DNA of 26,960 nt from Planctomycetota bacterium (GCA_036479435.1 JAZGFI010000023.1:1-26960); one strand, 5' to 3'. Positions 7,866 to 22,771 are shown, counted from the first letter of the stretch. Numbers and translations are program-made. Notes: a model not told the origin generated them from the letters alone.

Positions 7866-9470
7866 CTATCCCATGGGGACAAGGTCGGAATTTGGCTGGT
7901 AGTCCTCGTCCTGCGCCCACCGACGGGCGTCCTTCTGGCAAAGCGAGATGTGGGCGCTCTCCCAACGTTCGAGCGTCCAGCCTTCCGGCAGGTGCCGCCT
8001 GGCACCCCTGAAGAGCTCCTGCGGAGTGCGGCCGGGGCAGGCCTTCTGGCAGCGCAGAACGATGGTTTCGTCCTCGGTGTAGTCCGGCATGGCGTTCTGG
8101 CGTTCTGGCCTGAACGAGCCTCCCCCATCACGGCTTCGTGTCGTCGGCCCATCCCTGAGCTCACGGAGCTGCGTTCGTGCCGTCTCCTCGTCAGCGATCG
8201 TGATGAACGCCCTTCGGTGCTTGGAGATCAGATTGAAGAACAGCGCAGGCGGGTTGGAGCCATTGCTCCGTGCCCGGTTGGCCAAGGCCAGGAAGTCCAG
8301 CTTCCCGCTCTCGCCCTCGAAGGTGAAGCCGAGCTCGAGGGCTTGGGGCCAGAGCTCGAGCAGAGCCTCGGGGCTCTTCAAGTCCTCTGCCGTGACATCG
8401 CGGATGTTCGGCCGGGTCGATCCCTTGCGGTGTGACGTCCTCCGTCTTGGGCCTTCTGGCCTTCCTTCCTTCGTGCAAACCCCAGATCGGTTTAGGGCGT
8501 TAGCCCTAAGCCTTCTGGTTTTAAGTTCCTTCGTAGAAGGAGAGATCTGTTTAGATGGGGTGTGCGACTGACCTGAGTTTTTGGCCGGAGGGGTGTGCGA
8601 TTGACCTGAGCCTCTCCCCTCCCCCACCGCGTCAGGGTCGGAGTTTTCCACAGCGTCATTCGCTGCGGCGTCAGGCTTGGCCGGAGCCCAATCGACGTTG
8701 ATCACGTCATGGGAGCCCCACTTGTTGAGCGCCCATTGCGGCGTCTCCACGGGCTTCAGCCAGCCGAGCTCGATCAAGTGCCGCCGTGCGGCGCGGATCG
8801 TGGCGAGATCGAACCCGAAGGTCTGGGCGACCCATGAGCAGCGGGTTCGACCGTCGGTCGTGTAGAGGCCGGTCTTCTTGCTCCAGAAGACGGAACGGAT
8901 CAAAGCGGCGATGATGAAGGCCGTCTCTGCAGGCCGGAAACCGGCCGCTAGGGCGCGCAGGGTGCGGCGCGGGACGGGAACTTTCCCTTTCGGGCGCGGG
9001 AGCGCGCTGAAGAAGGCCCAAAAACCTTCGAGATCGTCGGCGATGACGATCTGCTCTATGGAACTTGCGAAGGTGATTTCATGGGCCGTGATGGCGACCA
9101 GGCCGAGCTCTCTGAGCTGCTTGACGTCCGCCGATAGGTCGCGGTTCGCAGACTTCGAACCCCTACCCCCCACCAGAGCCTTGAGCTCTTGGAGTAGGAA
9201 GAGTGGCTCTGGGGCGTCGCCGTAGGCTCCTGAGCAAGCCTTGGCGGCTTCTCGCCGGGCAGCCATTTCATGGGCAGCGAAGTAGATCCGCTGTTGCCGC
9301 CGTGAGATGTGTCCGCTGCTTCGCAGCCAGGCCACGATTGCGAGTTCGTGGGTGGATATTGGTCGGTAGCCTCCGGCGATCGCCCGCTGTGTTGTGCGGG
9401 TGAAGTCAGTGGTTTGCTTCCGTCCCTGACCCCTCCCCGAGGTCTGTGGATGGATGATTGTCGTCGTCAA
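7866..9470 (-). CDS. Putative plasmid replication initiator (HTH-containing, family not recognised)
   Basis: 534 aa, divergent from parA; wHTH-like WVAQTFGFDLATIRAARRHLIELGWL; low-complexity linker with DNA repeats; GGAGG SD before a TTG start; no other Rep candidate on the circle. Confidence 0.65.
   Translation of the reverse strand: MTTTIIHPQTSGRGQGRKQTTDFTRTTQRAIAGGYRPISTHELAIVAWLRSSGHISRRQQRIYFAAHEMAARREAAKACSGAYGDAPEPLFLLQELKALVGGRGSKSANRDLSADVKQLRELGLVAITAHEITFASSIEQIVIADDLEGFWAFFSALPRPKGKVPVPRRTLRALAAGFRPAETAFIIAALIRSVFWSKKTGLYTTDGRTRCSWVAQTFGFDLATIRAARRHLIELGWLKPVETPQWALNKWGSHDVINVDWAPAKPDAAANDAVENSDPDAVGEGRGSGQSHTPPAKNSGQSHTPSKQISPSTKELKTRRLRANALNRSGVCTKEGRPEGPRRRTSHRKGSTRPNIRDVTAEDLKSPEALLELWPQALELGFTFEGESGKLDFLALANRARSNGSNPPALFFNLISKHRRAFITIADEETARTQLRELRDGPTTRSRDGGGSFRPERQNAMPDYTEDETIVLRCQKACPGRTPQELFRGARRHLPEGWTLERWESAHISLCQKDARRWAQDEDYQPNSDLVPMG
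8490..8652. other. Candidate intragenic replication origin (AT-richer patch, two 21-bp iterons, DnaA box)
   Basis: GGGGTGTGCGA(C/T)TGACCTGAG at 8557-8577 and 8590-8610; TTTTCCACA at 8644-8652; AT-richer 8490-8556. Confidence 0.5.
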
Positions 9471-9537: not shown

Positions 9538-9567
9538 TTGACGGTCTCACTGCACAGGTGCTAGGTT
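9538..9567 (+). promoter_or_regulatory. Sigma70-like promoter antisense to the rep leader
   Basis: TTGACG (9538-9543), 18-bp spacer, TGn-TAGGTT (9562-9567). Confidence 0.5.
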
Positions 9568-9573
9568 GGAAGT

Positions 9574-9677: not shown

Positions 9678-9819
9678 GTATCTAAGGGCGTCTTGGGTCC
9701 GTGCGCGCCTCCGCTGATCTGTGGTCCCCTGCCGAATGCTGAACGCGCCGACAAATGGGGTGCAGGGAATTCCTGCAAGCCCAAGATGTAGGGATTCTTC
9801 AGCTCAATCAAGTCTCGTG

Positions 9820-9825
9820 ATTATA
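9820..9825 (-). promoter_or_regulatory. Perfect -10 box (TATAAT) pointing toward rep
   Basis: ATTATA on the + strand. No consensus -35; that position is covered by the 34-bp palindrome. Confidence 0.4.
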
Positions 9826-9833
9826 CGGGTGGT

Positions 9834-10070
9834 GCGTTTTAGCGTTCTGGCCAGAACGCTAAAACGCCATCTTGGAATGGCCAGAACGCGTTCTGGCGTA
9901 AATGGTCTGGCTATTACGCCAGAACGCCCATTTCTGTGGGTAACCAGAAACAGGGCGTTGACCGGCGGTTTTGAGGCCGTTAGGGTGTTTCTGTCTGGCG
10001 AGAACGCTAAAACGCTAAAACGCCACCTTGAGATGGCCAGAACGCGTTCTGGCGTCTATATTCTGGCCAT
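9834..10070. repeat. Cluster of GCCAGAACGC/AAAACGC motifs in direct and inverted arrangement (parS-like or iteron/operator array)
   Basis: 34-bp perfect palindrome at 9834-9867; 18-bp palindrome GCCAGAACGCGTTCTGGC at 9880-9897 and 10036-10053; ~45-bp imperfect direct repeat (9855-9899 vs 10011-10055); single copy at 9918. Confidence 0.85.
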
Positions 10071-10111
10071 AACGGGATCATTCGACCCCAAAAAACCTGT
10101 GGAGAAGTGAC

Positions 10112-11062
10112 ATGCAAATAATCGGAACTGGGAACCACAAGGGGGGAACGGGCAAGACGACGACCGCAATTCACCTTGCAGCCGCTCTTGGGGAGCGCGG
10201 CCGGAGGGTCTTGCTGATCGACCTGGACGGCAATCTGGGGCTCACTAAGAGCTTTGATGTGCCGACCTTGGTGCAGGGCACCTACCACGTCCTAATGCGT
10301 GACCAGGCGATCGAGGATGTGATCCTGACCCCAGAGATGGAGCAGGAGCGAGCGAAGCATCCGGGCGAGGCAATCGACCTCCCTAAGAACGTGCATTTAC
10401 TCCCCGGGAACCGGCGGTTGGAGAACTTCGACGAAGACCACGCCGGGAGCAAAGGGAAGTACATCGCGGGCTTCGACACGCTGACAGCACCTCTGAAGGA
10501 GCTGGAGGATGCCGGGCTCTACGACTACGTCATTCTCGACACGGCTCCGGCGGCGGGGACGCTGACGATCGCCGCCTATAAGAACGCCGACTGGTTCATT
10601 CTGGCCACAACGGCCGAGAGCCTTGCCGTAGAGGCCCTGGAACGGTCTCTAGACGACATCATTGAGGCGCAGGAAGTGAATCCGAACCTTGAGGTGCTGG
10701 GCGTCCACATGTGCCAGGTTGATCTACGCAAGAAGCTCGAGGTGGCCTACGTCGAGCAGGTGCGTCGCAGCCTCTTGGGCGAAGACGGCGAGCCAGACGG
10801 CTTCGGCCTATTCGAGGCCATCGTGCCGATCCGCGCGGTGATTGGCCGCGCGTCAGCCCTGAAGGTGTCGCTCTTCGATTACGACCCCGAGCCGGGCGAA
10901 GTGAAGATGGTCAACGAGCTGCGCAACCTCTATCGGAAGCTGGCTGAGGAGGTCGAGGAGCGGATTGGGCAGGACGTCGTAGAAACGCCAGTCGTTGATA
11001 CCGACCGGAAGCCGCTGACAGAGCCGAGCACGGAAGAGAAGGAGAACGTCGCTCATGGCTAA
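10112..11062 (+). CDS. parA: ParA/Soj family partition ATPase
   Basis: Deviant Walker A NHKGGTGKTTT; VLLIDLD; YDYVILDTAP. Confidence 0.95.
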   Translation: MQIIGTGNHKGGTGKTTTAIHLAAALGERGRRVLLIDLDGNLGLTKSFDVPTLVQGTYHVLMRDQAIEDVILTPEMEQERAKHPGEAIDLPKNVHLLPGNRRLENFDEDHAGSKGKYIAGFDTLTAPLKELEDAGLYDYVILDTAPAAGTLTIAAYKNADWFILATTAESLAVEALERSLDDIIEAQEVNPNLEVLGVHMCQVDLRKKLEVAYVEQVRRSLLGEDGEPDGFGLFEAIVPIRAVIGRASALKVSLFDYDPEPGEVKMVNELRNLYRKLAEEVEERIGQDVVETPVVDTDRKPLTEPSTEEKENVAHG

Positions 11063-11615
11063 GGGAAAGAGAAGAAGTGCCGTGGACGAGGTTCAGGGGA
11101 GCGATAGCCCCGTTTCGTTGAAGATGCGGGCCCAGCAAGCAGCCGCACGCAAAGCGCGCGAAGAGGATGGTGTCGGGGAGACACCAGAAGTCAGCCCCGT
11201 AGCTACACAGCGGAAGCCGCTCACGGGCGAGGAGACAGCCGCTCCGCGCTCCGAAGAGCGCAGACCCAAGGCCAAGAGGCGCGTAATGGGTGCGGCAGGC
11301 AACGGCAAGGTCGTTGCTGAGCGGGGCAAGAAGAAGCAGAAGCCCGCGAAACGGATACCCGTGACCGGGAATGAAGGCGACGTCTGGGAAGGGGCTTGCC
11401 GAACCATGAGCGCCTGTGTGGGGGCGAAGGTGACCTTCGCCGCCGCAAGCCGCGCCATCTGGTCGATGGTGGTGGAGATCGAAGGCGACCTAGATCGCTT
11501 TGAGGCGCCGCAGCTTGAGAAGCCCGCACACGCGGACGCAGTGGCCAACGCAGACTTCGAGGACCAGCTTCGGGGCTTCCTGCTCGAGGTGCTGCAGAAG
11601 TCAAAACGCCACTGA
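11055..11615 (+). CDS. Hypothetical protein, putative ParA partner (centromere-binding protein)
   Basis: Overlaps the parA stop; long basic, low-complexity N-terminus and compact helical C-terminus; no ParB GxRR motif. Confidence 0.6.
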   Translation: MAKGKRRSAVDEVQGSDSPVSLKMRAQQAAARKAREEDGVGETPEVSPVATQRKPLTGEETAAPRSEERRPKAKRRVMGAAGNGKVVAERGKKKQKPAKRIPVTGNEGDVWEGACRTMSACVGAKVTFAAASRAIWSMVVEIEGDLDRFEAPQLEKPAHADAVANADFEDQLRGFLLEVLQKSKRH

Positions 11616-11651
11616 TGGCGTTCTGGCCATTTCGTTATAGCCAAAACGCCA
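11603..11651. repeat. Second cluster of the par-region motif
   Basis: AAAACGCCA (11603), GGCGTTCTGGCC (11617-11628), GCCAAAACGCCA (11640-11651). Confidence 0.65.
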
Positions 11652-11760
11652 CAATGACGCCGTAGCGCTTCCAGTAGGGCCCCATGAACGAACTACACAC
11701 ACCGAAGAGCTCGGGTGACTGCACCTGGAGCGCACCGGAAAACCTGACTGACGAAGGTCG

Positions 11761-13188
11761 GTGGGGGAGGGGAGTGTCGTGAGCAGATCAGGGAACAGGA
11801 CGAATGGGCTGGTTGCTGTGCTTGAGGGCTCTTCTGAGGATTTTGAGCCGTGGGTCTATCCCGGGAGCACCGTGACGCTCTCTGCAGCCCTTGGGAAATA
11901 CCAAGCACGGGTTGGAGACCGCGTTCGCGGTCAGGAGAGCGAGTTTGATCGGGTGTCGATCGAGATCCCCGATTTCGTGCCAGCCAACCTCGGTGAGTGG
12001 TGTGAACCCGACGGTGACGTGGTTCTCGAGTGGGAAGGAGTAAGTAGCTGCATGGGGGTCTTCGTTGAAGCCCGTGTTGAGCCGCTCTCTCCGTTGGAGT
12101 CGAGCCCCTTCTTGGCTTCGAGTTCACCGTACGGAGACAAGGTCATCCTAGATCTGAGGAGGGATGTCTTTAGTGCTTTGGATACACGCAGCGCGTGGGA
12201 AAGTCATCGAGAGCTTCTCGAGGCGGCGAGAGGCGGAGGGGTGTTGGGGCGTCGAGATCGCGCCCTTTGTGCACAGGCACTGAGCGGTAGCGTCGGTGGG
12301 TGGACAGAGAGCGCCGGAGCGGTCTTGAATGGAGTGTTTGCTGGGATCGCTTTTGATGGGGATGGAGAAGGCCGATTCTTTGACTACTTAGTCAAGATGT
12401 TCTCGTCTTCGAACACTTGGTTCGAGACCCCATGCAGTGGAATTTGGAAGAGAACCGCGCGGCTTTTTCCGTGGTTAGAGGGCGGCGAACCGGCCTTATC
12501 CGCCGCCGTGCAGGTTGGCCCTGATGGTGCGCGTAAGCACCTTACGCGCCTCTTTGGCGCGTGTGGGTTGACGAGAGCCTCCAGCCTCTGGGATGCCTCA
12601 CGCGTCTACACGTTGAACGACCTTCTCTCCGAGGAGGAGGAGGGGGCTAATGAGGCTGCTTTGGAGGCGTTTCTATATGTGTGGGGTGCCACTGAATTTG
12701 ACAAGCCCGCCCTTTCTGTGGCACGAAGGAGTGAAGCAACAGATGCGGGAGCCGGAGGCTCCGCAACAAGAGAAAGGGACGGGGCGATCACAGATGCACC
12801 CGCAGGAGTAAAGACAGACGTCGTAGTTCGCGAGCCATTCGCGGATGCAAGTGCTGTTGAGATCTTGGCGGCGTTGCAGCCTGAAGTCCCAGACGCAGCC
12901 GTGTCACGCCTCACAACCCTCATTCGGGGTGCTCAGACGTCTCCACCGGCCGACAGAGCGTCCTTCGTCGCCGAGTTCAATGAAGCGCTAGATGCGCTGA
13001 ACCTCCGCATCCGCATTGATGGAGGCGAGGAGCTCGCGCGTTTGAAGTTCATCAAGACCTCTAAAGCGGGAAGTATTCAGCTCGGCCTGTCGGGCCGGAG
13101 CCGGGGTTTACGCGGCGTCGAACTCGAGGTTGTTCGTGTGGCAGGGGTCTCGAGGCGGGTGACCCCGAGCCAAACAGCATCTCCGTAG
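11761..13188 (+). CDS. Hypothetical protein (~475 aa, start uncertain)
   Basis: Only long ORF filling the gap between par and the transfer operon; no motif recognised. Confidence 0.6.
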   Translation: MGEGSVVSRSGNRTNGLVAVLEGSSEDFEPWVYPGSTVTLSAALGKYQARVGDRVRGQESEFDRVSIEIPDFVPANLGEWCEPDGDVVLEWEGVSSCMGVFVEARVEPLSPLESSPFLASSSPYGDKVILDLRRDVFSALDTRSAWESHRELLEAARGGGVLGRRDRALCAQALSGSVGGWTESAGAVLNGVFAGIAFDGDGEGRFFDYLVKMFSSSNTWFETPCSGIWKRTARLFPWLEGGEPALSAAVQVGPDGARKHLTRLFGACGLTRASSLWDASRVYTLNDLLSEEEEGANEAALEAFLYVWGATEFDKPALSVARRSEATDAGAGGSATRERDGAITDAPAGVKTDVVVREPFADASAVEILAALQPEVPDAAVSRLTTLIRGAQTSPPADRASFVAEFNEALDALNLRIRIDGGEELARLKFIKTSKAGSIQLGLSGRSRGLRGVELEVVRVAGVSRRVTPSQTASP

Positions 13189-13219
13189 GTCCTTTCTGGA
13201 AAGTGCCGTAAGCGATCTC

Positions 13220-13249
13220 TTGCAATTCTAACCCGCAGGGTTAGAATTG
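13220..13249 (+). promoter_or_regulatory. Sigma70 promoter overlapped by a palindromic operator
   Basis: TTGCAA (13220-25), 16 bp, TAGAAT (13242-47); inverted repeat CAATTCTAACCC-gca-GGGTTAGAATTG (13223-13249); AGGAGA SD before ATG 13275. Confidence 0.75.
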
Positions 13250-13274
13250 GTTCTCCAACAAACAGGAGAACCCC

Positions 13275-13709
13275 ATGCAGCAAGAGATCCCCCAACAGAT
13301 CGCAGAGGACACGCTTCGCCGCGCCCGTGCGCTGCTAGAGCAGCCCGGACCGGACGCTAAGGCCGTCCAGGGGGCCAGAGAGAGCGTTCAGGCCTTGGCT
13401 CCGACTATCGGCGCGGCGGCCGTCAAAGACGCCCTGCGGGCGATGGAGGGGGCCGATCGACAGCTTCGAGAGCACAGGCTCCGCGAGCTCGGCGACGCCC
13501 TTGCCTCAGCCCTCAAACCCCTCGGCCTTCGCCTCGACGTCCACGTCCTCAAGCGTCAGCCGCGCAAGCGCAGCGCGAAGCCGGCTGCCCCCCAGGTAGC
13601 AGAGCAGGCGAGCGCGATGATGGGGGGGGAGAGCGCAAAGCCCACACCGACCGCGACCGAAGAGCCCGGTGAGCGAAGCTGCTTCCTCGGGCGGAGGAAG
13701 GCTCAATGA
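13275..13709 (+). CDS. Hypothetical helical protein, first gene of the operon
   Basis: Strong SD; ATGA overlap with the next gene. Confidence 0.75.
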   Translation: MQQEIPQQIAEDTLRRARALLEQPGPDAKAVQGARESVQALAPTIGAAAVKDALRAMEGADRQLREHRLRELGDALASALKPLGLRLDVHVLKRQPRKRSAKPAAPQVAEQASAMMGGESAKPTPTATEEPGERSCFLGRRKAQ

Positions 13710-14452
13710 AGCGCCCGATCTCCGTCTCTCGCGACGAGAGCGCCAAAGCGCTCACGGCACGTTGGATTCTTGTGCTGTTGTTGGCGCTCTTCGCCTCCGG
13801 CTGGTTCTACCACTCCTTCACGAGTGGGGATCGAAGCGGGCAAGACCTCATTTCGTTCATCTTGCTGGGTTTCGTCTACGGACTGCTGCTTGCGGCCTGG
13901 GGCCTGCGCGAACTACTTCGCGAGAAGCACCGCTTCGAGAGACTGTGTAGTGAGCTCAAAGGGGTAGAGCTCGGTGCGTTCCTGGCGGAGCGAGAAGGGC
14001 AACCAGGGCCGCTGCTCGCGTTGCTGCGCAAGCTCGATATGCAGGCGCGTCGCAGCCCTAACGCTGTTGATGCTGCGACGCTGATTTCGTTGCTTCACCG
14101 GCGGCTAAGCCGGACGGCGAAGCTCGTTCAGCGCGTTGGTGTTCTGCTGGTTGCGGGCGGGATGATCGGGACCTGCATCGGGATCGGGGGGATGCTCAGC
14201 GGCCTCACCGAAGTCGTCGGCTCATCGGATGGGAAAGGGGGACCGGAGTTCATGCAGGGCCTCTTCGCTCCGCACGGGGGCCCCCTATCCGCTTTGGCCA
14301 GCGCCTACAACACGACGTTGCTCGGCATTGGGTGCGGCGGGGTGGTTCTGCGCGCGCTTTCAAACGTTCTCCAGGACGGCGTCGACGTCCTTGCGGATCG
14401 GTACGAGGAGTTCATCTGCGTCAATTGCCGCCCGGCCTTCGGCAAGTCATGA
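13706..14452 (+). CDS. MotA/TolQ/ExbB proton-channel family protein
   Basis: Two N-terminal TM helices and a cytoplasmic region, then GMIGTCIG and ALASAYNTTLLG, matching the family GxxGTxxG...AxxTTxxG signature. Confidence 0.8.
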   Translation: MKRPISVSRDESAKALTARWILVLLLALFASGWFYHSFTSGDRSGQDLISFILLGFVYGLLLAAWGLRELLREKHRFERLCSELKGVELGAFLAEREGQPGPLLALLRKLDMQARRSPNAVDAATLISLLHRRLSRTAKLVQRVGVLLVAGGMIGTCIGIGGMLSGLTEVVGSSDGKGGPEFMQGLFAPHGGPLSALASAYNTTLLGIGCGGVVLRALSNVLQDGVDVLADRYEEFICVNCRPAFGKS

Positions 14453-15501
14453 GCCGCACCCGAACGAACACCCGCGAAGACGACGACGAAGGCATCTTCA
14501 ACGACGTCCTCTTCTGCACGATCGGCGTCGTGCTCTTGCTCCTGGTCGTTGCCCTTGTGCAAGTCGGCGTGCCCGAAGTCGCGAAGGGTGAACTCGAAGC
14601 GATGAATGGTGAGCTCGAGGCAATGAAGTCGCACCTCGTGGTCGAACACAGAGCACTCATCGCCGCCCAAGACGCAGCGGAGCAAGCGCAGCGACACAGT
14701 GCCGAGCTCACGCGCTCCCTTGATGATGAACGCGTGGCACGAGAAGGCCAGCTGCAAGCGAATGCGACGCTGTCTCGCCTTCTCGATGCTCAAGGTCGGG
14801 AGAGCAAGCGCCAGCAGCAAGCAGCCAAAGACGCCAAGATTATCCAACGCGATCTCGAGTTCCGCGACACGGACGTCGTGCTGTGTCTTGACGGCACCGC
14901 TTCGATGAAGGCGCGCCTGGAGACACTCCAAACAGGCGTATTGGCACTGAGCGAGATCAGCGCACGGCTTGTGAAGATCCGCGTCGGCGTCGTTATCTAC
15001 AGCGGTCGAGGCGTTCTCGAGTTCCCTCTGACGGAGATCGGCCCAACGGTAGACGGCAAACCAAGCGAGGGAATGAAGAAGCTCCGGGAGTTCATGGAAC
15101 TCCACGCGATTGCAGTGGAGGGACATGCATACGTCGAAGCCGGTGTGAACGCTGCTCTCGCCATGTTCGGTGCGCGCAGAAACGGCACCAGGCAACACCT
15201 TGTGGTGATGGGGGACATGGACCCGCTCGAGGCACACGGCGACGACACGGCAGGGGGAGACGCAAGCGCTCTGCGCGTGATCGCGAGCGTGCAGGAGTTC
15301 GCTCAACGCTACGAGGACACGGGCGTCTTGTCGCTGTTCACCGCGAACGGACGGCACACAAGGGACACAAATCAGCGCATCGCGCGCTTCTTCGAGGCAC
15401 TTGCGAGCAGAGGCAAGCGATCGAAATACACGAACGACCTTTCACAACTCACGGCGACGACCGTCGCAGCCCTCTTCACCCAACAAAGGAGAACCCAATG
15501 A
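14449..15501 (+). CDS. ExbD/MotB-like TM anchor plus coiled coil plus von Willebrand A (vWA) domain protein
   Basis: Likely start is ATG 14449 (ATGA overlap); TM IFNDVLFCTIGVVLLLLVV with Asp; coiled coil; MIDAS-like DVVLCLDGTASM, RVGVVIY, HLVVMGD. Confidence 0.8.
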   Translation: MSRTRTNTREDDDEGIFNDVLFCTIGVVLLLLVVALVQVGVPEVAKGELEAMNGELEAMKSHLVVEHRALIAAQDAAEQAQRHSAELTRSLDDERVAREGQLQANATLSRLLDAQGRESKRQQQAAKDAKIIQRDLEFRDTDVVLCLDGTASMKARLETLQTGVLALSEISARLVKIRVGVVIYSGRGVLEFPLTEIGPTVDGKPSEGMKKLREFMELHAIAVEGHAYVEAGVNAALAMFGARRNGTRQHLVVMGDMDPLEAHGDDTAGGDASALRVIASVQEFAQRYEDTGVLSLFTANGRHTRDTNQRIARFFEALASRGKRSKYTNDLSQLTATTVAALFTQQRRTQ

Positions 15502-15902
15502 ACGCCATCACAACTGAAGCCCCCCTCGAGGTCTGGATCGACTTCCCTGAGAGCGAGGCTAGAACATCACCGCCCAGTGAACCTTCAAGTGTTCCTGAGA
15601 GCACGGCAGACTTCGAGGTGGATTGGGCCGAGGTCGTCAACCAAGCCCTGCTTGGGATGGCGGTCGGGTTTGCCGTCGGGATGTTCCTGTACGCCACGAC
15701 CGAGATCGGCCCAGTGGCTTTCATCACGGTGGCTAGTATCGGTCTCTCTCATGCGACACAGCGCGTGCTACTCCTCACGGTTGTCCCTCGTATTTCAGAC
15801 AGGTGGGTGTGGCCTAGCCTCCTCGGATTCTTCCTTCTCCCCCCGCTCGGCGCGAACGCCGTCGTGATTGGGATCGCGCTCCTAATACAGGGAGCGATCT
15901 GA
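15498..15902 (+). CDS. Small membrane protein (~3 TM)
   Basis: AAGGAG SD; ATGA overlap; hydrophobic segments. Confidence 0.7.
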   Translation: MNAITTEAPLEVWIDFPESEARTSPPSEPSSVPESTADFEVDWAEVVNQALLGMAVGFAVGMFLYATTEIGPVAFITVASIGLSHATQRVLLLTVVPRISDRWVWPSLLGFFLLPPLGANAVVIGIALLIQGAI

Positions 15903-16279
15903 TGCGCACGAATAGCATCGCGGGACGTGTCCAAGGTTTCCTAGTAGGCACGCTCCTCATCAACCTCGCGGGCGCGGCCGCGTGTTGGGTCATCGCGACC
16001 AAGTACCTCGGCACGTCTGGCTTTGCGGGGCTGTGGGGGATGGGTGCAGTAATCGGCTTCCTGATGGCCAGCACTCAATCGCTGCACCTGTTCGCGCCAA
16101 ACAAGACCGGTGAGGGTTTCCTGGCGCAAGCAGGGACCGCGTTCATGGGGCTCGTGATGATCGGCTGGATGCTGGGCGTTGCCCTGAGCATGTTCGCCGA
16201 AGACAGCGAGAGCTTGATGGCTGACGCCAAGACGATCGCCACCCACGTCTGGCGTGGGATCGAGAGCCTCCTGTCCTGA
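15902..16279 (+). CDS. Small Gly-rich membrane protein (~3 TM)
   Basis: TGATG overlap with the previous gene; three hydrophobic segments. Confidence 0.7.
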   Translation: MRTNSIAGRVQGFLVGTLLINLAGAAACWVIATKYLGTSGFAGLWGMGAVIGFLMASTQSLHLFAPNKTGEGFLAQAGTAFMGLVMIGWMLGVALSMFAEDSESLMADAKTIATHVWRGIESLLS

Positions 16280-16308
16280 TCTTCCTGACGAACCTTCTGG
16301 AGACCCCA

Positions 16309-16767
16309 ATGCATCTGACACTCAAAGACCACCTCGACATGCGCCACGACATGGCGGGGGTGATCGACCGCTCAAAGCAAGCCACAGGAGAGGCCGCGTC
16401 GATCCTTCAGCGATCGGAGAGGTTCCGCAGCATCGCGGAGGCGCTGAGCGCCCGGTACGACCTCGCGCTCCTCCGGGCTGGCCCAGAGGGGGAGAACGCT
16501 GCGGAAGTCGTTGCTGCGCGCGCCGACCTCACAAGCCAGTTAGAGCTGTTCGTTCGTGCGACAGCGTTCGATGAATCCCGGTTTGCCGGGATCTTCAAGA
16601 GACTCGATGAGGACAAGCACGTCTTGGCCGCAACGGAACGCAGGCTTTGCGGAACTCCACCGCGCCGGTTCCTGCGCCTTGCAACACTCGTCGTCACCGC
16701 GCTGACCTTGGCGTCTATGGCAGGCTTCCCGGTCATCGCGACACTCGAAACCTGGCTTGGGCTGTAA
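16309..16767 (+). CDS. Helical protein with a C-terminal TM anchor
   Basis: GGAG SD; C-terminal LATLVVTALTLASMAGFPVI. Confidence 0.7.
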   Translation: MHLTLKDHLDMRHDMAGVIDRSKQATGEAASILQRSERFRSIAEALSARYDLALLRAGPEGENAAEVVAARADLTSQLELFVRATAFDESRFAGIFKRLDEDKHVLAATERRLCGTPPRRFLRLATLVVTALTLASMAGFPVIATLETWLGL

Positions 16768-16770
16768 GCC

Positions 16771-18414
16771 ATGGCGAACCAGCTCCAGAACCAACAAGGC
16801 CGCTCTGGCCTGTTCCTGTGGTGCGTCGCCGCTCTCGCGGCGCTCGGCACAGCCCGTTTCTGGGCGACGGGTCAACGTGGCGACGATCAGGCCTGCTTGC
16901 TTGCGGCTCTGCTGGCGATCGTCACCGTTCGCAGCTCATGGTTGGGTCTCGTTGCACACGACCAAAAACGCCTCCTGAAGAGGCTTCGACAGACATCAAA
17001 GGAGAAAAGCACCGTGCATGGATCAAGCGGCTGGGCAACACGAAAAGACATCAAGGACGCAGGGCTGGAGAAGCCTGGCGGGATCTTTCTCGGCGAGTTC
17101 GAGGGCCGGGAGATCTCGTACAAATCCGATCTATCGATGACGATCCTCGGCCCTCCCGGGTCAGCGAAAACCACAGCCTTCGCCACTCAGTTTTTGCTCC
17201 GAACCGATCACGACCTCGTAGTTTGCAACGACCCGAAGCTCGAATTGTGGCTGGTCACGCACGCTGACCTTGATCGGCGCGGCTACCGGGTCTTGTTGAT
17301 CTCGGCCTGGTTTCAGAGCTTCATCGATCAGTTTGACGGCCGCATTCAAACTCACGACGACGGGTTTGATCCGTGCTCGTTCCTCGACCCGAACGATCCG
17401 TGCATCATCGACGACACGCGCCTTCTTGCGACGCTACTGATCCCACCGGTAAGCGGTGGGAAGAGCGACGCGACGGGTGATTTCTTCAACGACTTTAGTC
17501 GGTCGATCCTCACCGCCTTCTCGTTGCTGATCCTGTCCGAGAAAGGAAGAGTGACGTTGCCGGAACTCCGTTCGAGGATCTTCGCGTCGGAAGGGCAGAT
17601 CATGGAAGACATCGCCGCGATGCTGGCCTCGAGCGCCTTCTCTGGCGTGCTTGCGGAGGAGGGTTCACGCCTCTACTCGCCGAAGGTCAACGCGCCCAAG
17701 GAGTGGTCGGGCGGTCTCAGCGGAGCTATGCGCGCTCTCAAGAGTTTCGATGCGCACGGGCCGCTCGGTCAAAGCGTCCAGAAGGGTGGTGTGGACTTCC
17801 GAAAGCTCGGCGATCAGAAGACCGTCGTGTTCTTCGCGCAGCCGCCCGAGAAGATCGAGAGCCATGAGGGCTATGCCTCGATGGTGTTGGTCCTCGCGAT
17901 GGAGATGATCGCCAGGAACCGGCAGAAGAAGCGCTGCGTGTTCCTGCTCGATGAGCTCCAGAACCAGCCCTCGGCTCTCTTGCCTGTGCTGAAAGGGATC
18001 GCTCTCTACAGGGGCTCGGGCATTCAGTTCATCTGTTTGTTCCAATTCCTCGCTGCGCTCAAGCGCCACATCGGTGATAGCTGGCGCGAGTATCTCTCTG
18101 TTGATCTGTTTGTCTCCTTGGCTGTGCCTACGGACCCAGAGACAGCCGACATCATCTCGCGCCTTGCGGGGCAAAGCACGGTGCGCGGCACGTCCTACTC
18201 GAGCGACGCCGAGGGGCTTGCCGGAGGCGGCCTTGGCGTAGGTGTTGGATCGCAGGACGTCGCACGTGCGCTTCTCACCGCCGACGAAGCGCGCCGGATG
18301 GGTCGAGACGAGGCCTTGGTGTTCATGTCGAACCTGCCTCCGATGCGCATCAAGAAGCAGTCCTACTTGGACAACCCGAAGCTGCGCGCAGGGAGCAACC
18401 CCTACTATGAATGA
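16771..18414 (+). CDS. virD4: Type IV coupling protein, VirD4/TraG family
   Basis: Two N-terminal TMs; HGSSGWAT; Walker A GPPGSAKT; NDPKLEL; FDP; Walker B FLLDE; RALLTADEARRM. Confidence 0.92.
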   Translation: MANQLQNQQGRSGLFLWCVAALAALGTARFWATGQRGDDQACLLAALLAIVTVRSSWLGLVAHDQKRLLKRLRQTSKEKSTVHGSSGWATRKDIKDAGLEKPGGIFLGEFEGREISYKSDLSMTILGPPGSAKTTAFATQFLLRTDHDLVVCNDPKLELWLVTHADLDRRGYRVLLISAWFQSFIDQFDGRIQTHDDGFDPCSFLDPNDPCIIDDTRLLATLLIPPVSGGKSDATGDFFNDFSRSILTAFSLLILSEKGRVTLPELRSRIFASEGQIMEDIAAMLASSAFSGVLAEEGSRLYSPKVNAPKEWSGGLSGAMRALKSFDAHGPLGQSVQKGGVDFRKLGDQKTVVFFAQPPEKIESHEGYASMVLVLAMEMIARNRQKKRCVFLLDELQNQPSALLPVLKGIALYRGSGIQFICLFQFLAALKRHIGDSWREYLSVDLFVSLAVPTDPETADIISRLAGQSTVRGTSYSSDAEGLAGGGLGVGVGSQDVARALLTADEARRMGRDEALVFMSNLPPMRIKKQSYLDNPKLRAGSNPYYE

Positions 18415-18715
18415 GCAAGGTTTTGACGCCGGGCTCTACCGCGCACAGCGGTGGCGTGCTGTTCGTCGTTGGTCACTCCTGCTAGGGAGTTTGCTTCTGT
18501 TCGTTGAATGGCATGGCGTGCCTTACCTACGGACGCAGTGGGAGGGTGCCGACCGCCAGAGAATGAGCACAGCACGGTACTGGAGCGTCACGGGCGGCCG
18601 TGTCGAGCGTGTGAACGGCATTGCGCCGCTCATCGCACTGTTCCCGCTCGAGCGCTCGGTCGTTAGCTACGGCAAAGAAGCGCTCGAGGACCTGCTCTCC
18701 CACCTGGAGCGATGA
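18407..18715 (+). CDS. Small membrane-anchored hypothetical protein (102 aa)
   Basis: ATG 18407 (MNEQGF) overlaps the virD4 end; hydrophobic WSLLLGSLLLFVEW. Confidence 0.6.
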   Translation: MNEQGFDAGLYRAQRWRAVRRWSLLLGSLLLFVEWHGVPYLRTQWEGADRQRMSTARYWSVTGGRVERVNGIAPLIALFPLERSVVSYGKEALEDLLSHLER

Positions 18716-18716
18716 G

Positions 18717-19022
18717 ATGGCGAACAAGCCTATAGACCGTGTGTCTGCCACAGAGCAGCTTCGCATTGAAGCCCATGAACGCCTCACCAAAGCGCAGCGA
18801 GGCATCACAGAGAAGCCCGCTGACCGTGAGGCGCGGGCGGTGTACGTCGAAGCACTGCAGAAGATGCGCGATGCGGCGGATCTGAAGGAGCGCGCCCCAG
18901 AGGTGGGAGCGGAGTTTGATCGTGCGCGAAACGGCGTGATCGCTAAGAGGGAGCCGAAGAAGGCGAAAGCTTCTCTATATCTCAAACCACCCGGCCCGTC
19001 GCCCATGGGGACGGCGCAATAG
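18717..19022 (+). CDS. Hypothetical charged helical protein (101 aa)
   Basis: ATG 18717 lies 1 nt after the previous stop, with GGAG upstream. Confidence 0.6.
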   Translation: MANKPIDRVSATEQLRIEAHERLTKAQRGITEKPADREARAVYVEALQKMRDAADLKERAPEVGAEFDRARNGVIAKREPKKAKASLYLKPPGPSPMGTAQ

Positions 19023-19053
19023 CGCCCGCCACTGGTCTCACCGCAGCTTCGCG

Positions 19054-19503
19054 ATGAAGAGCGAGACTACGAAGCCGAGAAAGCCCTGGCAGCGATGCGC
19101 ATGGCGGTGGAGTTCCGCAAAGCCTCGCGTGACGCCTTCGAGCGCTGAGGAATTTGACGCAAGCCGCCAATTCGTGCAACTATGGGCGATGGCGTTTGCA
19201 ATGAGACGAGACAACGAATTCGAGCACTGGCTTCAACCCTTTACGGGTGCGGTCATGCTGCCTGGATACCGTCGTCAGCTCCGCAAGACGACGCGCCTCT
19301 GGTTTGAGCTTTACTGGCAGTTGTTGGCTCTAGGGTTCACCGAACAACAACTCGCGGACCACGCCCTTGAGTGGCGATGGGTCTCAAAGCTGCCGGATGA
19401 TCTCGCCCTCGACCAAGCGGTCATGGATCTCGCACGTGAGTGGGGGATTGAGGTGCGGGACGAGTTCGACCCGTTCACCGAAGCCAACCATCCCCGGCAC
19501 TAG
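19054..19503 (+). CDS. Hypothetical protein
   Basis: Trp-rich helical ORF converging on the relaxase with a 4-bp stop overlap; start uncertain. Confidence 0.55.
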   Translation: MKSETTKPRKPWQRCAWRWSSAKPRVTPSSAEEFDASRQFVQLWAMAFAMRRDNEFEHWLQPFTGAVMLPGYRRQLRKTTRLWFELYWQLLALGFTEQQLADHALEWRWVSKLPDDLALDQAVMDLAREWGIEVRDEFDPFTEANHPRH

Positions 19504-20945
19504 CGCCCACGGTCTTCGTCTCGGCCTTCCTTGCGATCTTGGTCCCGCTGCTTCGCGGCTTCCCGCATCCGATCGAGGGCACTCAAGGCAGTCTTCGTCC
19601 GCTCGTCGGCCGCGATCATCTGAGCTCCGAAGCGTTTCTCCGGCGGCAGAGCCTCCATCGCCTTGCGGTGTTCTGTCCAGGCCTGCTCACGTTCAACCTT
19701 CCGTGTAGCCCACTTCTCGCGAAGGACAGCCGCTGCGGTGCGGTGCTTCAAGATCAGCTCAGCACGCTCACGAGTGAATCGATGGGTAAGGAGCGCTCTG
19801 TCGGCCTGCAGCTTCGCACGCTCAGCTTCAGCGGCACGGTCTCCGGCTGCACGTTGCCGTGCCGCTAGCTCACGCTCTTGACCCTTCTGCGCTTTCTCGA
19901 GCTGCATTTTGCGTGCGCCTCGAGACCACAGGACGTTGACGGGGGCCCGAAGCGAGAGCAACGCCTTCAGGGCGTTGATCGCCTGACCTGCGATGTGTTC
20001 TTCGCTGCGCTCGAAGGCTGTGGTTGCGACTTTGTGCTCGTAGTAGAGCGTGGCCCAGTCGTCCGTGAACGTGTTCCGAGCGCTGTGCGCCGCACGCGCG
20101 ATGCGCTCACCCGCGCCCTCACGGAGCTCCGCCTTGCGAAGCCTGTGAGCCTCTGAGAAGTCGACCCACTGCTGCTTCCTAGCGTCCCGTTCTTGCTTCG
20201 ATTGCTTGGCGAGCGCGGCGTCTTTCGCCCGCTGTTCCGTCCTGACCTCGAGGACAGGCGGTCGGTTGTCGTTCACGCCTGCTTCAAGCTCGTAGACGTC
20301 ACGAGGCGCGCGCTTCTGGCTCGGGACGCTCTCTCCGCGATCCCGCGCTGCGTTGTTGATCGCACGTTGGTCGACGATGATCCCACCGTTCTCCAACTCG
20401 TACTTCTCCGCCCATCTGCTGAGCATCTTGAAGTCATGCCCCGCAGGCAGCATGACGCCGTGTCCTGGATGGACACGGTTCACGACCACGTGAACGTGTG
20501 CGTTGTCGGTGTCTTCGTGCGACACCACGAGAACCTGGTGCTCACTCGCGAACTGATCCCGGGCCGCCACGCGCCCAGCTTTTTTATTCCTACCGCCCTT
20601 CTGCCCGGCCTTTTCACCGAGAACGGCAAGGGAACCGTTGACGGCCCGCATCATCTCTTCGCGGCTCACCTCCTGCCACTCAGCCCAGGAGAGTGTGTAG
20701 TGCAAGACGTGGTTCTTGGACTTCCTTCCGGCGTTCGAGATGCCCGCCTTGTCCTTCAAGCGGGCTTGATCGAGCGCCGTGGCTGCCATGACCTTGGCGG
20801 CCATCATGGGCCTACGTGTGGCGAGGTTCTGGGTCTCCGTCCAGCCCACGCGTTCGGGGTTCTCTTGGCCTTTGCTTCCCTCCATGAGGTAAGCCACGAG
20901 GCCCCGGAAGGACTTGCCTTGCTTGGTTTGAACGACACTAATCAT
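19500..20945 (-). CDS. Relaxase, MOBP/VirD2-like (relaxase/mobilisation nuclease domain)
   Basis: Motif I GKSFRGLVAYL (catalytic Tyr); motif II HYTLSW; HUH motif III HEDTDNAHVHVVVNRVHP; C-terminal coiled coil ending in a DRGR-type tail. Confidence 0.93.
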   Translation of the reverse strand: MISVVQTKQGKSFRGLVAYLMEGSKGQENPERVGWTETQNLATRRPMMAAKVMAATALDQARLKDKAGISNAGRKSKNHVLHYTLSWAEWQEVSREEMMRAVNGSLAVLGEKAGQKGGRNKKAGRVAARDQFASEHQVLVVSHEDTDNAHVHVVVNRVHPGHGVMLPAGHDFKMLSRWAEKYELENGGIIVDQRAINNAARDRGESVPSQKRAPRDVYELEAGVNDNRPPVLEVRTEQRAKDAALAKQSKQERDARKQQWVDFSEAHRLRKAELREGAGERIARAAHSARNTFTDDWATLYYEHKVATTAFERSEEHIAGQAINALKALLSLRAPVNVLWSRGARKMQLEKAQKGQERELAARQRAAGDRAAEAERAKLQADRALLTHRFTRERAELILKHRTAAAVLREKWATRKVEREQAWTEHRKAMEALPPEKRFGAQMIAADERTKTALSALDRMREAAKQRDQDRKEGRDEDRGR

Positions 20946-21483
20946 CGTCGATCATCACCCTCTCAAGGCAGCCCTCGATCTGGTCGCCGAGCTCGCGGAT
21001 GCGAGCGACGACGGCTTCCCACTCCACTGCCGCACGGCGGTTGGTGTGGGAGGCGAGGGCGAGCTGATTGGCGTTGTTTCCGACGCTACTAAGCTCGAGG
21101 CCGAGCGTGTTGAGCTCACTGATGAGAGCCGCTGTCTGCCTCTTGGCAGGCGGCGCGTTCGCGAAGTCGAGCATGCGGCGGACAAGGCCCGCCTCGCTCA
21201 GACCGGCTGCTTCCGCCTCTGTGCGGAAGTAGTCGCGGGAGAAGAGCTCGGCGGCATCGACGCCGCGCTTTTCGAGCGCTGAGATGAGCGCGGGAGTGGA
21301 CTGGGAGCGGGAAGCAGAGGCACCGAAGCCAAGGCGACGACGAACGAATTCCGCTTCGCTAACGCCGTTCAGGCGAGCCTCGTGGCCGAGAGCCTCCTTC
21401 TCGGCCATGGTGAGGTCGGCGCGCGTTGAAGCGAGGCGCTGTTCGTCGGGTAGCTTCTTCGGTCTGCCGGCCTTCCTGGTCAT
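20938..21483 (-). CDS. mobC: MobC relaxosome accessory protein with an apparently duplicated RHH-like segment
   Basis: GRPKK, EARLNGVSEAEFVRRRL, EAEAAGLSEAGLVRRML and ELSSVGNNANQLA; AAGGA SD before ATG 21483; overlaps the relaxase start. Confidence 0.85.
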   Translation of the reverse strand: MTRKAGRPKKLPDEQRLASTRADLTMAEKEALGHEARLNGVSEAEFVRRRLGFGASASRSQSTPALISALEKRGVDAAELFSRDYFRTEAEAAGLSEAGLVRRMLDFANAPPAKRQTAALISELNTLGLELSSVGNNANQLALASHTNRRAAVEWEAVVARIRELGDQIEGCLERVMIDDD

Positions 21484-21506
21484 TTCCTTTCCTACTACCC
21501 CCGCAT

Positions 21507-21747
21507 CCAACGCCGGTTGCGTTGGCCGTCATTCAAGGGGTGGAGCCCTTGACGCGCATCCAAACCGCGCAGGGTTGGGCCAGATCCACCGAGGAAGCGG
21601 TGGCCGTATCCAAACCGGAGGGTTGGTCGTCGCCAGGGTCGAAACCCATGGCGCTCATCCAATCCGCGCAGGGTTGGTCCGCTCCACCGGGACACGGTGG
21701 CCTCATCCAATCGGGACGGTTGGCTGGTTCCAAGGGCAGCGCCCTTG
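21507..21747 (+). repeat. Array of ten short stem-loops with ~25-nt period and ~100-nt super-period
   Basis: Hairpins start at 21507, 21533, 21560, 21586, 21610, 21633, 21659, 21684, 21707 and 21731; eight are closed by CCA...TGG. Confidence 0.85.
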
Positions 21748-21860
21748 CCTGACAAAGCATCCCTCGAGGGATGCGACTCAGGCCGTCGCACATACAACCG
21801 GCAGCCGAAGGCTGACCCGGTGATGCGACGGGGCTTCGTTCGGGGGGGCAACCCCGACCA
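21747..21860. other. Probable oriT region
   Basis: Non-coding and upstream of mobC; 18-bp perfect palindrome GCATCCCTCGAGGGATGC (21757-21774) inside GCCTGA...TCAGGC; nic site not identified. Confidence 0.4.
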
Positions 21861-22351
21861 GACGGCCGCAGGCCGCCGCGCAGCGGTATTTTTCGGTACG
21901 ATAAATATATCTGGCTCCTCGTTGATACTCGGAATTTGCCATAACGGGCTTCATATGTCAAATAGGGGCACCTAAGGGCCATGATCCGCCGCCTGAACCG
22001 CCCTGCTGTCGGGCTCTTACAGGCCGCTCTACCACTCACGGTTGCCGTGGTGTGGACGCCAGGCACCCGACGACGCTCTTCGCGTCTTGGTCGGGTTCGC
22101 ACTGGCGAACTTGCTCCCCTCTGACGCCCTGCAGTCGCAGGTCGGGGGAGCTCCATGAACAGAGCACGTCCGCGCTAGCGACGTCCAGCCCCGCCGTTCC
22201 TGCCTCCTCCGAAGGCTGTGGACAAGCCCGCCCGATCTTCTCGCGGAAAGAGTGACGGTTCGAAGCTCGTCGTACGTTCAGTGATCTGGAAGCGGGGCAG
22301 TAGGAGAAAAAGACGGCCCACCAGGTGGCGGCAGACCGTCAATCCCGGGGC

Positions 22352-22771
22352 CTAGTGCTCCGAAGGCAGGTAGAGGGTCCAACCCGCGCCATTGAAGCCC
22401 GCCCAGATGTCGATTTCCCGCAGAGGGAAGTCGGTGAACGGGATCTCTTGCGTGATGAAAGGCGTCTCGCCCTTGTCGGCTCGTGCCGTCAGCACAGCGC
22501 CCGGGTCCGTCACCTTGAGGTGCCAGAACTGGAGGGTCTCCAGCCGCTCGTCCTGAGCGATCGCGGCCCGCATCTCCGGGCTCCCGAAGTAGCTGGCGAT
22601 CGCATCGATCAGCCAGAACGCCCCGGCTTCTTCCGCCAAGTAGTGAACGCCCTCGGTGTAGACGACGCTGCGACTGAACGGGTGCCGGATGAACTGTTCC
22701 GAGCCCGTGAAGCGCTGCAGGTTCTCGAGAAGCTGCTCGGGTGTGAGGGTTTCTGTTGGTTCGTTCGCCAT
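22352..22771 (-). CDS. DUF6876-like conserved hypothetical protein
   Basis: FTGSE, YTEGVHYLAEEAGAFWLIDAIAS, QEIPFTDFPL, LYLPSEH; AAGGAG SD before ATG 22771. Confidence 0.75.
   Translation of the reverse strand: MANEPTETLTPEQLLENLQRFTGSEQFIRHPFSRSVVYTEGVHYLAEEAGAFWLIDAIASYFGSPEMRAAIAQDERLETLQFWHLKVTDPGAVLTARADKGETPFITQEIPFTDFPLREIDIWAGFNGAGWTLYLPSEH

Follow-up and report, generated by a model that had tools for sequence, protein, structure and literature searches.

A predicted MotA/ExbB-type motor with a vWA subunit linked to the coupling protein VirD4 in VirB4-less mobile elements of Planctomycetota

On a planctomycete plasmid, a motor pair of the MotA/TolQ/ExbB type, whose second subunit ends in a vWA head, is encoded just upstream of the coupling protein gene virD4. 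The same pair occupies this position, 0.2-1.3 kb from virD4 and on the same strand, in six of the eight readable loci of one VirD4 clade (loci of kin are not independent, and four of the six come from one family). The remaining two loci have a 3-4-TM protein and an exported vWA protein in the slot before virD4, so that what stays constant is the vWA head and not the motor. We infer, with a probability of about 0.35, that the module serves T4CP-relaxase transfer as an accessory for docking or force, along a route other than an Mpf. The function of the operon is predicted from gene content, folds, conserved residues, linkage, the module swap and the absence of VirB4, and the module may belong to a hitherto undescribed mechanism of DNA transfer between cells.

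The plasmid and its operon

The window, by which we mean the whole 26,960-bp stretch analysed, carries a 127-bp terminal repeat and therefore closes to a circle of 26,833 bp, in agreement with the first-pass annotation, which had regarded the circle as complete. Contigs of a sequencing run from another study (X7) covered all 30 bins of positions 7500-26960, 44 of 50 contigs being at least 99% identical. The circle encodes Rep, ParA, a MOBP relaxase and VirD4, and no VirB4 was found on it by profile search (Table 1). Rep is probably a replication initiator, a function suggested by its position opposite parA. The relaxase (PF03432, NF041893) lies on the minus strand and converges with the operon, as had been supposed, and the motif array upstream of mobC is a candidate oriT/relaxosome region. 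Defence cargo of other kinds is also present on the plasmid. The C-terminal domain of the 475-aa ORF ahead of the operon is found in the same place in locus L018 (E 3e-6, 5 sequences), with weak recurrence in three further loci.

Table 1. Features of the window, with positions counted from its first nucleotide
Feature	Position	Strand	Remarks
Probable replication initiator (Rep)	7866..9470	-	41% identity to its counterpart on Planctomycetes plasmid pPla133_1
ParA and small partner	10112..11615	+	preceded by palindromic repeats at 9827-10074
475-aa ORF ahead of operon	11761..13188	+
Promoter-like -35/-10 under perfect 12-bp inverted repeat (putative operator)	13220..13249	+
o1, 144-aa soluble protein	13275..13709	+	no family match
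MotA/TolQ/ExbB-type A subunit, 248 aa	13706..14452	+	conserved G152, G155, T156, T204
B subunit	14449..15501	+	transpore helix with Asp19, coiled coil, vWA head
m1, 134-aa membrane protein	15498..15902	+	no homologue found in other elements
m2, 125-aa membrane protein	15902..16279	+	mostly conserved in close relative, run X9
m3, 152 aa, coil and C-terminal TM	16309..16767	+
VirD4/TraG coupling protein, 547 aa	16771..18414	+	PF02534, E 1e-32; two N-terminal TMs
s1, 102 aa, probable single-pass protein	18407..18715	+	motif GVP...Y-S-V-T-G...P
s2, 101-aa soluble protein	18717..19022	+
s3, RHH_4-like small protein	19054..19503	+	start probably 19189 or 19201
MOBP-type relaxase	19500..20945	-	PF03432 and NF041893; convergent on operon
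MobC/NikA-like relaxosome accessory protein	20938..21510	-	MobC-like family match
Five copies of ATCCAA-N6-8-G(C/G)TTGG, ~50-bp spacing	21504..21725	.	upstream of mobC

The first-pass annotation had described a packed operon of nine genes. The nine ORFs are present on the plus strand, with junctions of -4, -4, -4, -1, +29, +3, -8 and +1 bp, a packing that suggests co-transcription, but a tenth gene had been missed. This gene, s3, is homologous to the RHH_4-like gene at the end of the operon in other elements (a profile from which the window was left out gives E 1.8e-4). The predicted transcription unit accordingly reaches 19503, where it overlaps the stop codon of the relaxase gene. As for the proposed promoter/operator, the promoter match (TTGCAA-16-TAGAAT, one found against 0.9 expected) is by itself not above chance, whereas the inverted repeat over it (13223-13249) is, as none of 2000 shuffles gave one. 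The repeat was searched for in the other loci and was not found there.

Homologues of o1 occur in loci L018 (first in the operon) and L020 (near mobC), and s1, of no known family, follows VirD4 in all eight clade loci. In each of the other five motor loci, coil-plus-TM proteins reminiscent of m3 are encoded close to the motor, a likeness of architecture that sequence comparison does not extend to a match. No match to Pfam, NCBIfam or PDB was obtained for m1-m3, s1 and s2, a result that very divergent Mpf subunits could also give. Recognisable VirB subunits among the small ORFs were rejected in the absence of a VirB family match in Pfam and NCBIfam, so that the earlier view of these ORFs as non-VirB stands at profile level. 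Profiles of s1 and s3 had no match among solved structures, and the sole lead for s1 in the Atlas scores 0.77.

Positional counterparts of s2 carry a C-terminal basic tail of the F-N-R-A-A type; the window s2 is the most deviant copy, and a leave-out profile fails to recover it. Basic tails of such a kind serve as substrate signals for T4CPs, and those of the s2 counterparts resemble the tails of MOBP relaxases. VirD4 might then hand over substrates such as s2 or relaxase-DNA for release by host secretion or in vesicles, with no mating involved and with the vWA module organising the site. This seems very improbable to us, as the resemblance of the tails was seen by eye only, the tail of the window s2 is atypical, and a secretion channel is not encoded.

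The motor pair and known 5:2 motors

The A subunit matches PF01618 with an E-value of 1.5e-4 (22.0 bits, slightly below the cut-off of 22.9). By VIA, the best fold matches of its AlphaFold model (pLDDT 93) are TolQ (Z 14.6, rmsd 3.6, 197 aligned) and ExbB (Z 13.8), and the top Foldseek rows are all ExbB/TolQ, though with an E-value of just 3.8e-3. Its profile also matches MotA chains (E 4e-6). T156 is invariant and T204 conserved in at least 90% of an alignment of 53 rows; in an alignment of 18 rows, T204 is invariant and T156 nearly so. Judged by its motif, T204 is probably the counterpart of the second ring Thr of 5:2 motors. In the B subunit, a coiled coil of ~90 residues runs to about residue 135, a VWA_2 match exceeds the cut-off, and the vWA head has the MIDAS residues D148-x-T-x-S152 and D256. 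Asp19 is aligned in five of six B-subunit rows; in the remaining one, an Asp directly precedes the TM but is aligned out of register. The TolQ/ExbB fold and the Thr pair on one side, and Asp19 and the VWA_2 match on the other, confirm the earlier recognition of a MotA/TolQ/ExbB-like protein and of a partner with an Asp-bearing TM, coiled coil and vWA domain. The two subunits would be expected to form an A5B2 (5:2) assembly that conducts ions.

In common with ExbBD, TolQR, MotAB and ZorAB, the pair has the A-subunit fold, the G-x-x-G-T and T-T motifs and an Asp-bearing partner helix. Unlike in these systems, the partner ends in a coiled coil and vWA domain and not in an ExbD/TolR or OmpA-like domain, and the window locus is without TonB/TolA, FliG or a Zorya effector. 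Putative 5:2 motors of TolQ-like and TPH-vWA proteins have been predicted (Williams-Jones et al., 2025, PMC12204202), and according to that study such pairs are widespread on chromosomes. As described there, a tolQ-like gene is followed by one for a TM-anchored vWA protein with a conserved Asp, a separate tolR/exbD and the SHLS motif are absent (the window TM has no His), and the A subunit has a Thr pair. The motors of that study, in Proteobacteria and Verrucomicrobia, have predominantly heterologous vWA pairs, whereas the window has a single vWA gene, as do all six motor loci, and unlike them the window pair is found on mobile elements and coupled to virD4. The first-pass annotation had held the architecture to be undescribed. 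This no longer applies to the motor pair itself, predicted in 2025, but we found no publication that ties the pair to DNA transfer, and the main text of PMC12204202, supplements aside, makes no mention of conjugation, plasmids, VirD4 or mobile elements. The linkage would give a first functional context to TPH-vWA motors, which that text predicts without a known job (PMC12204202).

The PADLOC Zorya models did not match any of 15 window proteins at E-values up to 1. ZorA has a long cytoplasmic tail and ZorB an OmpA-like domain. The A subunit ends at 248 aa with no such tail and its partner ends in a vWA domain, and membership of Zorya was rejected on these grounds. In the fold comparison, ZorA scored Z 10.7; the TolQ and ExbB scores are above that of the best unrelated row (Z 10.2). 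Exclusion genes are typically located within tra operons and diverge fast. A ZorAB-like motor-vWA pair, co-regulated with the transfer genes, might accordingly sense envelope contact (a mating pair or phage) or block entry of sister elements; the variable slot, the presence of a ZorA-type fold among the A-subunit matches and the other defence cargo on the plasmid would be in keeping with such a function. We nevertheless regard it as unlikely, since neither motor subunit matches PADLOC, the ZorA-like tail and OmpA-like domain are missing, no effector gene is conserved in the six loci, and a motor of two to three genes is large for exclusion.

Linkage to virD4 and replacement of the motor

In a quick tree, the window VirD4 is a member of a well supported clade. 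Its Walker A motif carries Ala132 at a position occupied by Gly in at least 90% of 21 aligned relatives. The eight readable clade loci comprise plasmids and integrated elements with MOBP or MOBF relaxases, and the link of motor and virD4 persists across changes of relaxase type and between plasmid and integrated state, with identities of 15-30% (15-23% by alignment) for the motor and vWA proteins across loci. Three of the vWA genes and all five MotA genes outside the window were found with profiles that had not been built from those loci. The tie of the motor to T4CP and relaxase, postulated from the window, was thus recovered in six of eight loci on independent, very diverged elements. Integration at tRNA genes was assigned from an integrase adjoining a tRNA or tmRNA gene in three loci; an exact-repeat search for att sites found none, and the element ends are undefined.

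The reverse search agreed with the linkage, as all five vWA-profile matches in 251 genomes adjoin a VirD4, one of them new. None of 25 other VirD4 loci matched any of seven profiles (motor genes and these vWA types), a count that omits six distant VirD4 places and includes three loci with less than 5 kb upstream. Not every planctomycete T4CP element therefore requires the module.

The two loci with an anchor-type module lie on separate branches of the VirD4 tree, and a module of this type is also found beside one more distant VirD4 outside the clade. The vWA domains of motor and anchor modules are homologous (hhalign 97.7%, E 1.9e-12), whereas the MotA family and the 3-4-TM anchor have no profile similarity. 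The motor is not obligatory, because two of eight clade members replace it with a non-motor membrane protein and an exported vWA protein. A relative in run X9 is ~90% identical across m2-virD4-s1-s3 but shows nothing that matches o1-motA-vWA-m1 at 80% or above, though its contig continues; together with the replacement in two loci, this indicates that the module is variable. The natural swap of motor and passive anchor on the same vWA head separates docking from force.

Plasmid pPla133_1 (CP036288) of the cultured strain Planctomycetes bacterium Pla133 is a sister plasmid with the same backbone: Rep (41%), ParA, o1 (43%), VirD4 (38%), s1, a convergent MOBP relaxase (37%) and MobC. Its slot, from which MotA is missing, is filled by a multi-TM protein (432 aa) and an exported protein with a vWA domain (482 aa). 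These proteins and the backbone counterparts are all annotated as hypothetical.

Among matches of the wider MotA family other than its own, 2 of 14 lie beside a VirD4 and 12 elsewhere, i.e. the family is mostly not transfer-linked. A host-useful envelope motor (for adhesion or surface remodelling) could therefore have been captured once before virD4, with no role in transfer, and gene order inherited among kin and the widespread chromosomal TolQ-like/TPH-vWA pairs in the main text of PMC12204202 point the same way. We think this improbable: the relaxase, the replicon, the integrase and all other cargo changed, yet order and tight coupling persisted down to 15-30% identity, and two different vWA modules share one slot, one of them also beside a VirD4 outside the clade.

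Further relatives were few. A PLSDB search, suggested earlier for co-occurrence of motor and transfer genes, gave no match to the MotA or vWA protein, a word-based homologue search with the vWA protein returned only itself, and no MotA was found in 60 relatives of the window's genome. Three poorly sampled collections were searched with the VirD4 alignment, yielding a single distant locus, from metagenome contigs, and nothing from the genome and viral contigs. Run on two other classes (201 and 161 genomes), the VirD4 profile added one distant, short locus. A MotA relative (49%) and a VirD4 relative (68%) are on contigs of equal size in two sources (14,861 and 6,778 bp), the one pair matched in this way, with none for the other 19 VirD4 relatives.

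Absence of VirB4 and the route of transfer

The question behind these findings is by what means relaxase elements spread in lineages where VirB4 is almost absent. In one planctomycete family, VirD4 was found in 25 of 251 genomes and VirB4 in at least three (6 candidates per genome scored), never together in one genome. None of the three VirB4 matches is on a contig longer than 21 kb; one is split by a stop and one has a foreign GC content of 31-37%. Six genomes with weak PF19044 matches were rejected, the 4 scanned proteins being HerA/TrwB-type or HAD ATPases. Three profiles (PF19044, PF03135, TIGR00929), whose positive controls matched, found no VirB4 in the circle or in its genome bin, which is possibly not the true host of the plasmid; the original report of a missing VirB4 is upheld to this extent. 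VirB4 was likewise not found in six carrier genomes, two of them single-contig, or near the 25 other VirD4 loci within the stretches read. A planctomycete Mpf may lie beyond the three profiles, or a helper may be missing from the assemblies.

Relaxase and T4CP are present as in self-transmissible conjugative systems, but unlike in those, a VirB4/TraU ATPase was not found. Relaxase, MobC and VirD4 with no VirB4, in plasmid and integrase-bearing forms, are instead reminiscent of mobilizable plasmids and IMEs with their own T4CP, of which CloDF13 is an example. The present elements differ from these in that a conserved envelope module of several genes, with a vWA head, precedes the T4CP, and in that no helper VirB4 was found in carrier genomes. 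PMC3158045 defines an element as mobilizable when its relaxase cluster lacks VirB4; elements of this kind are normally more numerous than self-transmissible ones and rely on an Mpf in trans (PMC3158045). PLSDB indeed classes pPla133_1 as mobilizable. The elements might thus rely on a borrowed Mpf, that of a conjugative element present transiently, with the vWA module (with or without motor) docking VirD4 on the foreign channel or stabilising the mating pair, and being swapped as the helper changes; a variable slot would suit a specificity adaptor, and at least three VirB4-family genes do exist in the 251 genomes. We are rather doubtful of such borrowing, given the lack of VirB4 in the six carrier genomes and in the 25 VirD4-bearing genomes of the family and the state of the three matches. 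In addition, the known contact of T4CPs with the Mpf is through VirB10 and requires no motor.

We therefore return to a docking or force accessory acting by a non-Mpf route. The operon would be the transfer region of a VirB4-less family of mobile elements of Planctomycetota. Relaxase and MobC (with s3) would process oriT, and VirD4, with s1 as a small fixed partner, would pump the relaxase-ssDNA substrate at the inner membrane. The slot before virD4 would provide a membrane-anchored periplasmic vWA head, docking through its metal-dependent MIDAS on an outer-envelope partner or a recipient contact site. On the window plasmid, this head would sit on a 5:2 ion-driven motor of five MotA-like subunits and two Asp-bearing helices with a coiled-coil shaft, and ion flux would serve to pull on the docked partner, to twist it or to let it go. 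Sister elements would dock without a motor, by means of a passive 3-4-TM anchor and an exported vWA protein. The way out would be a host envelope route; the elements would not encode an Mpf for it, and a resident helper would most likely not supply one either. The earlier interpretation of the operon would thus hold for the link to T4CP and relaxase, but not for an undescribed motor pair or an obligatory motor.

A bolder version, which we put forward only tentatively, is self-transfer without VirB4 or Mpf, in which VirD4 and s1 act as the pump and the rotary motor with its integrin-like vWA head opens or grips the envelope route or the recipient. If true, this would be the first relaxase-based transfer system partly powered by a MotA/ExbB-type motor, and would account for the many T4CP-relaxase elements in Planctomycetota alongside almost no VirB4. 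The compact elements, which measure about 13 kb from integrase to relaxase, offer a short, complete parts list for gene-by-gene study.

The motor pair and the operon

The window is one entire contig of bin G000, and its 127-bp terminal repeat closes it to a circle of 26,833 bp, in agreement with the first-pass annotation. Besides the operon, the circle carries a probable Rep, ParA with its partner, a MOBP-type relaxase and MobC, restriction-modification and helicase genes, a tyrosine recombinase, an Hjc-like nuclease and a FitAB-type pair. Run X7, which comes from a separate study, has cover in all 30 bins across 19.5 kb of the window, so misassembly does not account for the sequence. Two Planctomycetes plasmids were the best PLSDB matches of the window's VirD4 and Rep. 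They point to Planctomycetota as the probable phylum, as do 73 PSD1 matches in a genome assigned to that phylum, such an expansion being typical of planctomycetes. Eight contigs of the bin, including the window, are circular, and because the seven others are phage-, plasmid/satellite- or retroelement-like, the bin is contaminated with non-host circles. The window contig ranks 6 of 103 as a composition outlier, and the bin may not be the true host of the plasmid.

Nine tightly packed ORFs were present as originally described, but the unit has a tenth, s3 (19054/19189-19503), recovered with a profile from six other elements (E 1.8e-4); two members of the s3 family weakly matched RHH_4. Of the proposed promoter/operator, the putative operator, a perfect 12-bp inverted repeat spanning the promoter-like site, is above chance (0/2000 shuffles), but the promoter-like match by itself was at chance level.

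The 248-aa A subunit scores just below the PF01618 cut-off. Its predicted model (pLDDT 93), searched against 48,161 chains, was closest to TolQ (Z 14.6) and ExbB (13.8); ZorA (10.7) ranked next, just ahead of a helical bundle that is unrelated (10.2). Foldseek also placed ExbB/TolQ at the top, with weak E-values. The modelled fold, together with the conserved T156 and T204, supports the predicted MotA/TolQ/ExbB-like identity. The 350-aa partner has the expected architecture: a single TM bearing Asp19, about 90 residues of helix, and a vWA domain in which MIDAS residues D148, S152 and D256 are invariant among six homologues and the Thr position is variable. The ExbD/MotB-type topology places the C-terminal head in the periplasm, so the vWA head should be periplasmic. 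Motor assembly, ion use, binding partner and phenotype are what we infer for the pair; that it serves as an exclusion or sensing device is unlikely. By the PADLOC models the pair is not a Zorya system.

Features of the window and of related loci
Feature	Location	Description	Reading
Seven other circles in G000	C171, C292, C293, C286, C34, C76, C132	Three resemble phages, three resemble retroelements and one a small plasmid or satellite	
Palindrome blocks	9827-10074	Two related 92-bp blocks in the rep-parA interval, rich in GCCAGAACGC palindromes	Candidate origin or centromere
475-aa orphan ORF	11761-13188	C-terminal domain recurs ahead of the pPla133_1 transfer operon and, weakly, ahead of that of three integrated elements	Candidate regulator of the operator
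VirD4 Walker A, residue 132	16771-18414	Reads G-P-P-G-S-A-K-T; Ala where nearly all relatives have Gly	
ATCCAA...TTGG motif	21504-21725	Five spaced copies upstream of mobC	Candidate oriT or regulator array
Small genes common to L020, L018 or L110	26218-26655 and 22352-22855	145-aa ORF (several copies in L110); protein that is DUF6876-like, judging from its similarity to L110	Probable leading-region set of these elements
Anchor-type two-gene module	L018:31690-34429, L040:9773-12580, L110:8069-10757	3-4-TM coiled-coil protein and exported protein	

Linkage to VirD4 and the two kinds of anchor

A MotA profile (53 rows) had matches in 14 of the 400 other phylum genomes searched. Two matches adjoin VirD4 (L020, L024); the other 12 had no VirD4 in the sequence read around them, several of these stretches being short. 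The VirD4 profile matched 9/401 genomes of the phylum, 25/251 of one family, and 1/201 and 2/161 in two classes, these sets being overlapping. In a quick tree, the window VirD4 fell in a clade with 100% SH-aLRT, eight members of which have readable DNA: the window, L020, L024, L074, L075, L076, L040 and L018 (pPla133_1, counted together with a match at the same coordinates). The motA-vWA pair lies 0.2-1.3 kb upstream of virD4 in six of these eight loci, upholding the proposed linkage to a coupling protein and relaxase. The vWA genes of L074-L076 were recovered by a three-sequence profile that excluded them (E 6e-73 to 5e-22). All eight loci have s1 after virD4. Three have a convergent MOBP relaxase and five a co-oriented MOBF relaxase.

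Conversely, a search with the vWA profile matched 5/251 family genomes, four from its training set and one new (L110), where the match adjoins VirD4, is of the anchor type and accompanies an integrase at tmRNA. None of 25 other VirD4 loci (three with less than 5 kb upstream; six further VirD4 places lie outside the count) matched any of seven profiles at E 0.01. The association is real and conserved, and the module being mere cargo is improbable. One more motor-type case is suggested by a MotA relative and a VirD4 relative on equally long contigs in two sources.

In L018 and L040, which lie on separate branches, the position in front of virD4 is occupied by two genes. One encodes a 432-aa 3-4-TM protein, the other an exported protein of 480 aa whose N-terminal domain is conserved (GSP motif) and whose C-terminal domain is vWA. 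This uncharacterised module was found only beside VirD4 among the loci read. The vWA domains of both module types are homologous, whereas profile comparison revealed no homology between the two anchors. The constant unit is thus a periplasm-facing vWA head with VirD4, s1 and s3, and the motor is one of two alternative mounts for the head. A relative in run X9 shares about 90% identity across m2-virD4-s1-s3 and Rep and lacks cover of 13341-15936. The 6.6-kb contig of this relative continues with other sequence; its slot holds sequence less than 80% alike.

VirB4, transfer and novelty

PF19044 had no match in G000 and five other motor-type hosts, and PF03135 none in the 5/5 tested, in line with the annotated lack of VirB4; TIGR00929 gave one 46-residue P-loop match in one of five. 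Positive controls were detected in each case, and two of the hosts are single-contig genomes. The small ORFs of the operon matched no VirB family in Pfam or NCBIfam; any Mpf subunit among them would have to be very divergent. L074 and L075 have about 13 kb of genes between integrase and relaxase, leaving no room for an Mpf, with element ends that are not fixed.

Across the family, PF19044 matched 9/251 genomes, three over the cut-off. These three are real VirB4-family genes, and no genome is shared with the 25 of the VirD4 set. Their contigs (2-3 kb; 3.0 kb with the gene split by a stop; 21 kb at 31-37% GC) suggest that they may be misbinned or transient. That the module is an adaptor to a helper Mpf appears rather unlikely. 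In this planctomycete family, T4CP elements without VirB4 seem to be the norm.

We favor, with a probability of about 0.35, a vWA module that would be the docking part of the transfer apparatus, energised by the motor in six of eight cases, and would link the site of the coupling protein to an envelope route other than an Mpf. Some role of the module in transfer, taken together, has somewhat better than even odds. Transfer that needs the motor but no Mpf is doubtful; if true, it would be categorically new. Export without mating is very improbable.

The claim that no such system had been described held for the combination: full-text literature (main texts, few subscription papers) yielded no MotA/ExbB and vWA with a coupling protein or relaxase. 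It did not hold for the motor pair, which matches the 'TPH-vWA' motors predicted in PMC12204202, although a pair of vWA genes occurs there and one here. The terms Planctomyc, proton motive, ExbB, MotA and von Willebrand are all absent from the available text of the 2025 T4SS review PMC12857230. Passages of PMC3158045 define the elements and report fewer conjugative than mobilizable ones, and planctomycetes are unmentioned in those passages. What is new is the combination of two known or predicted kinds, a TPH-vWA motor and a VirB4-less T4CP element; the swap of motor and anchor modules is unreported.

Other elements of the family

Another, larger group of VirD4 elements from planctomycetes (L042-L045, L077-L093; 21 loci in one tree branch) often has a MOBF relaxase. 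In this group a ParB-like gene and small membrane proteins of other kinds lie next to virD4, and the 20 kb read contain no VirB4. HerA/TrwB-type ATPases of 740-760 aa (L097, L100, L101, L103, L104) are found in several genomes of the family, at most three in each, and are possible further coupling proteins. The integrated element L020 carries cargo beside its motor (10501-15324): a GlpX-like ORF (by eye), a two-copy ArdC anti-restriction gene and a cupin-like ORF.
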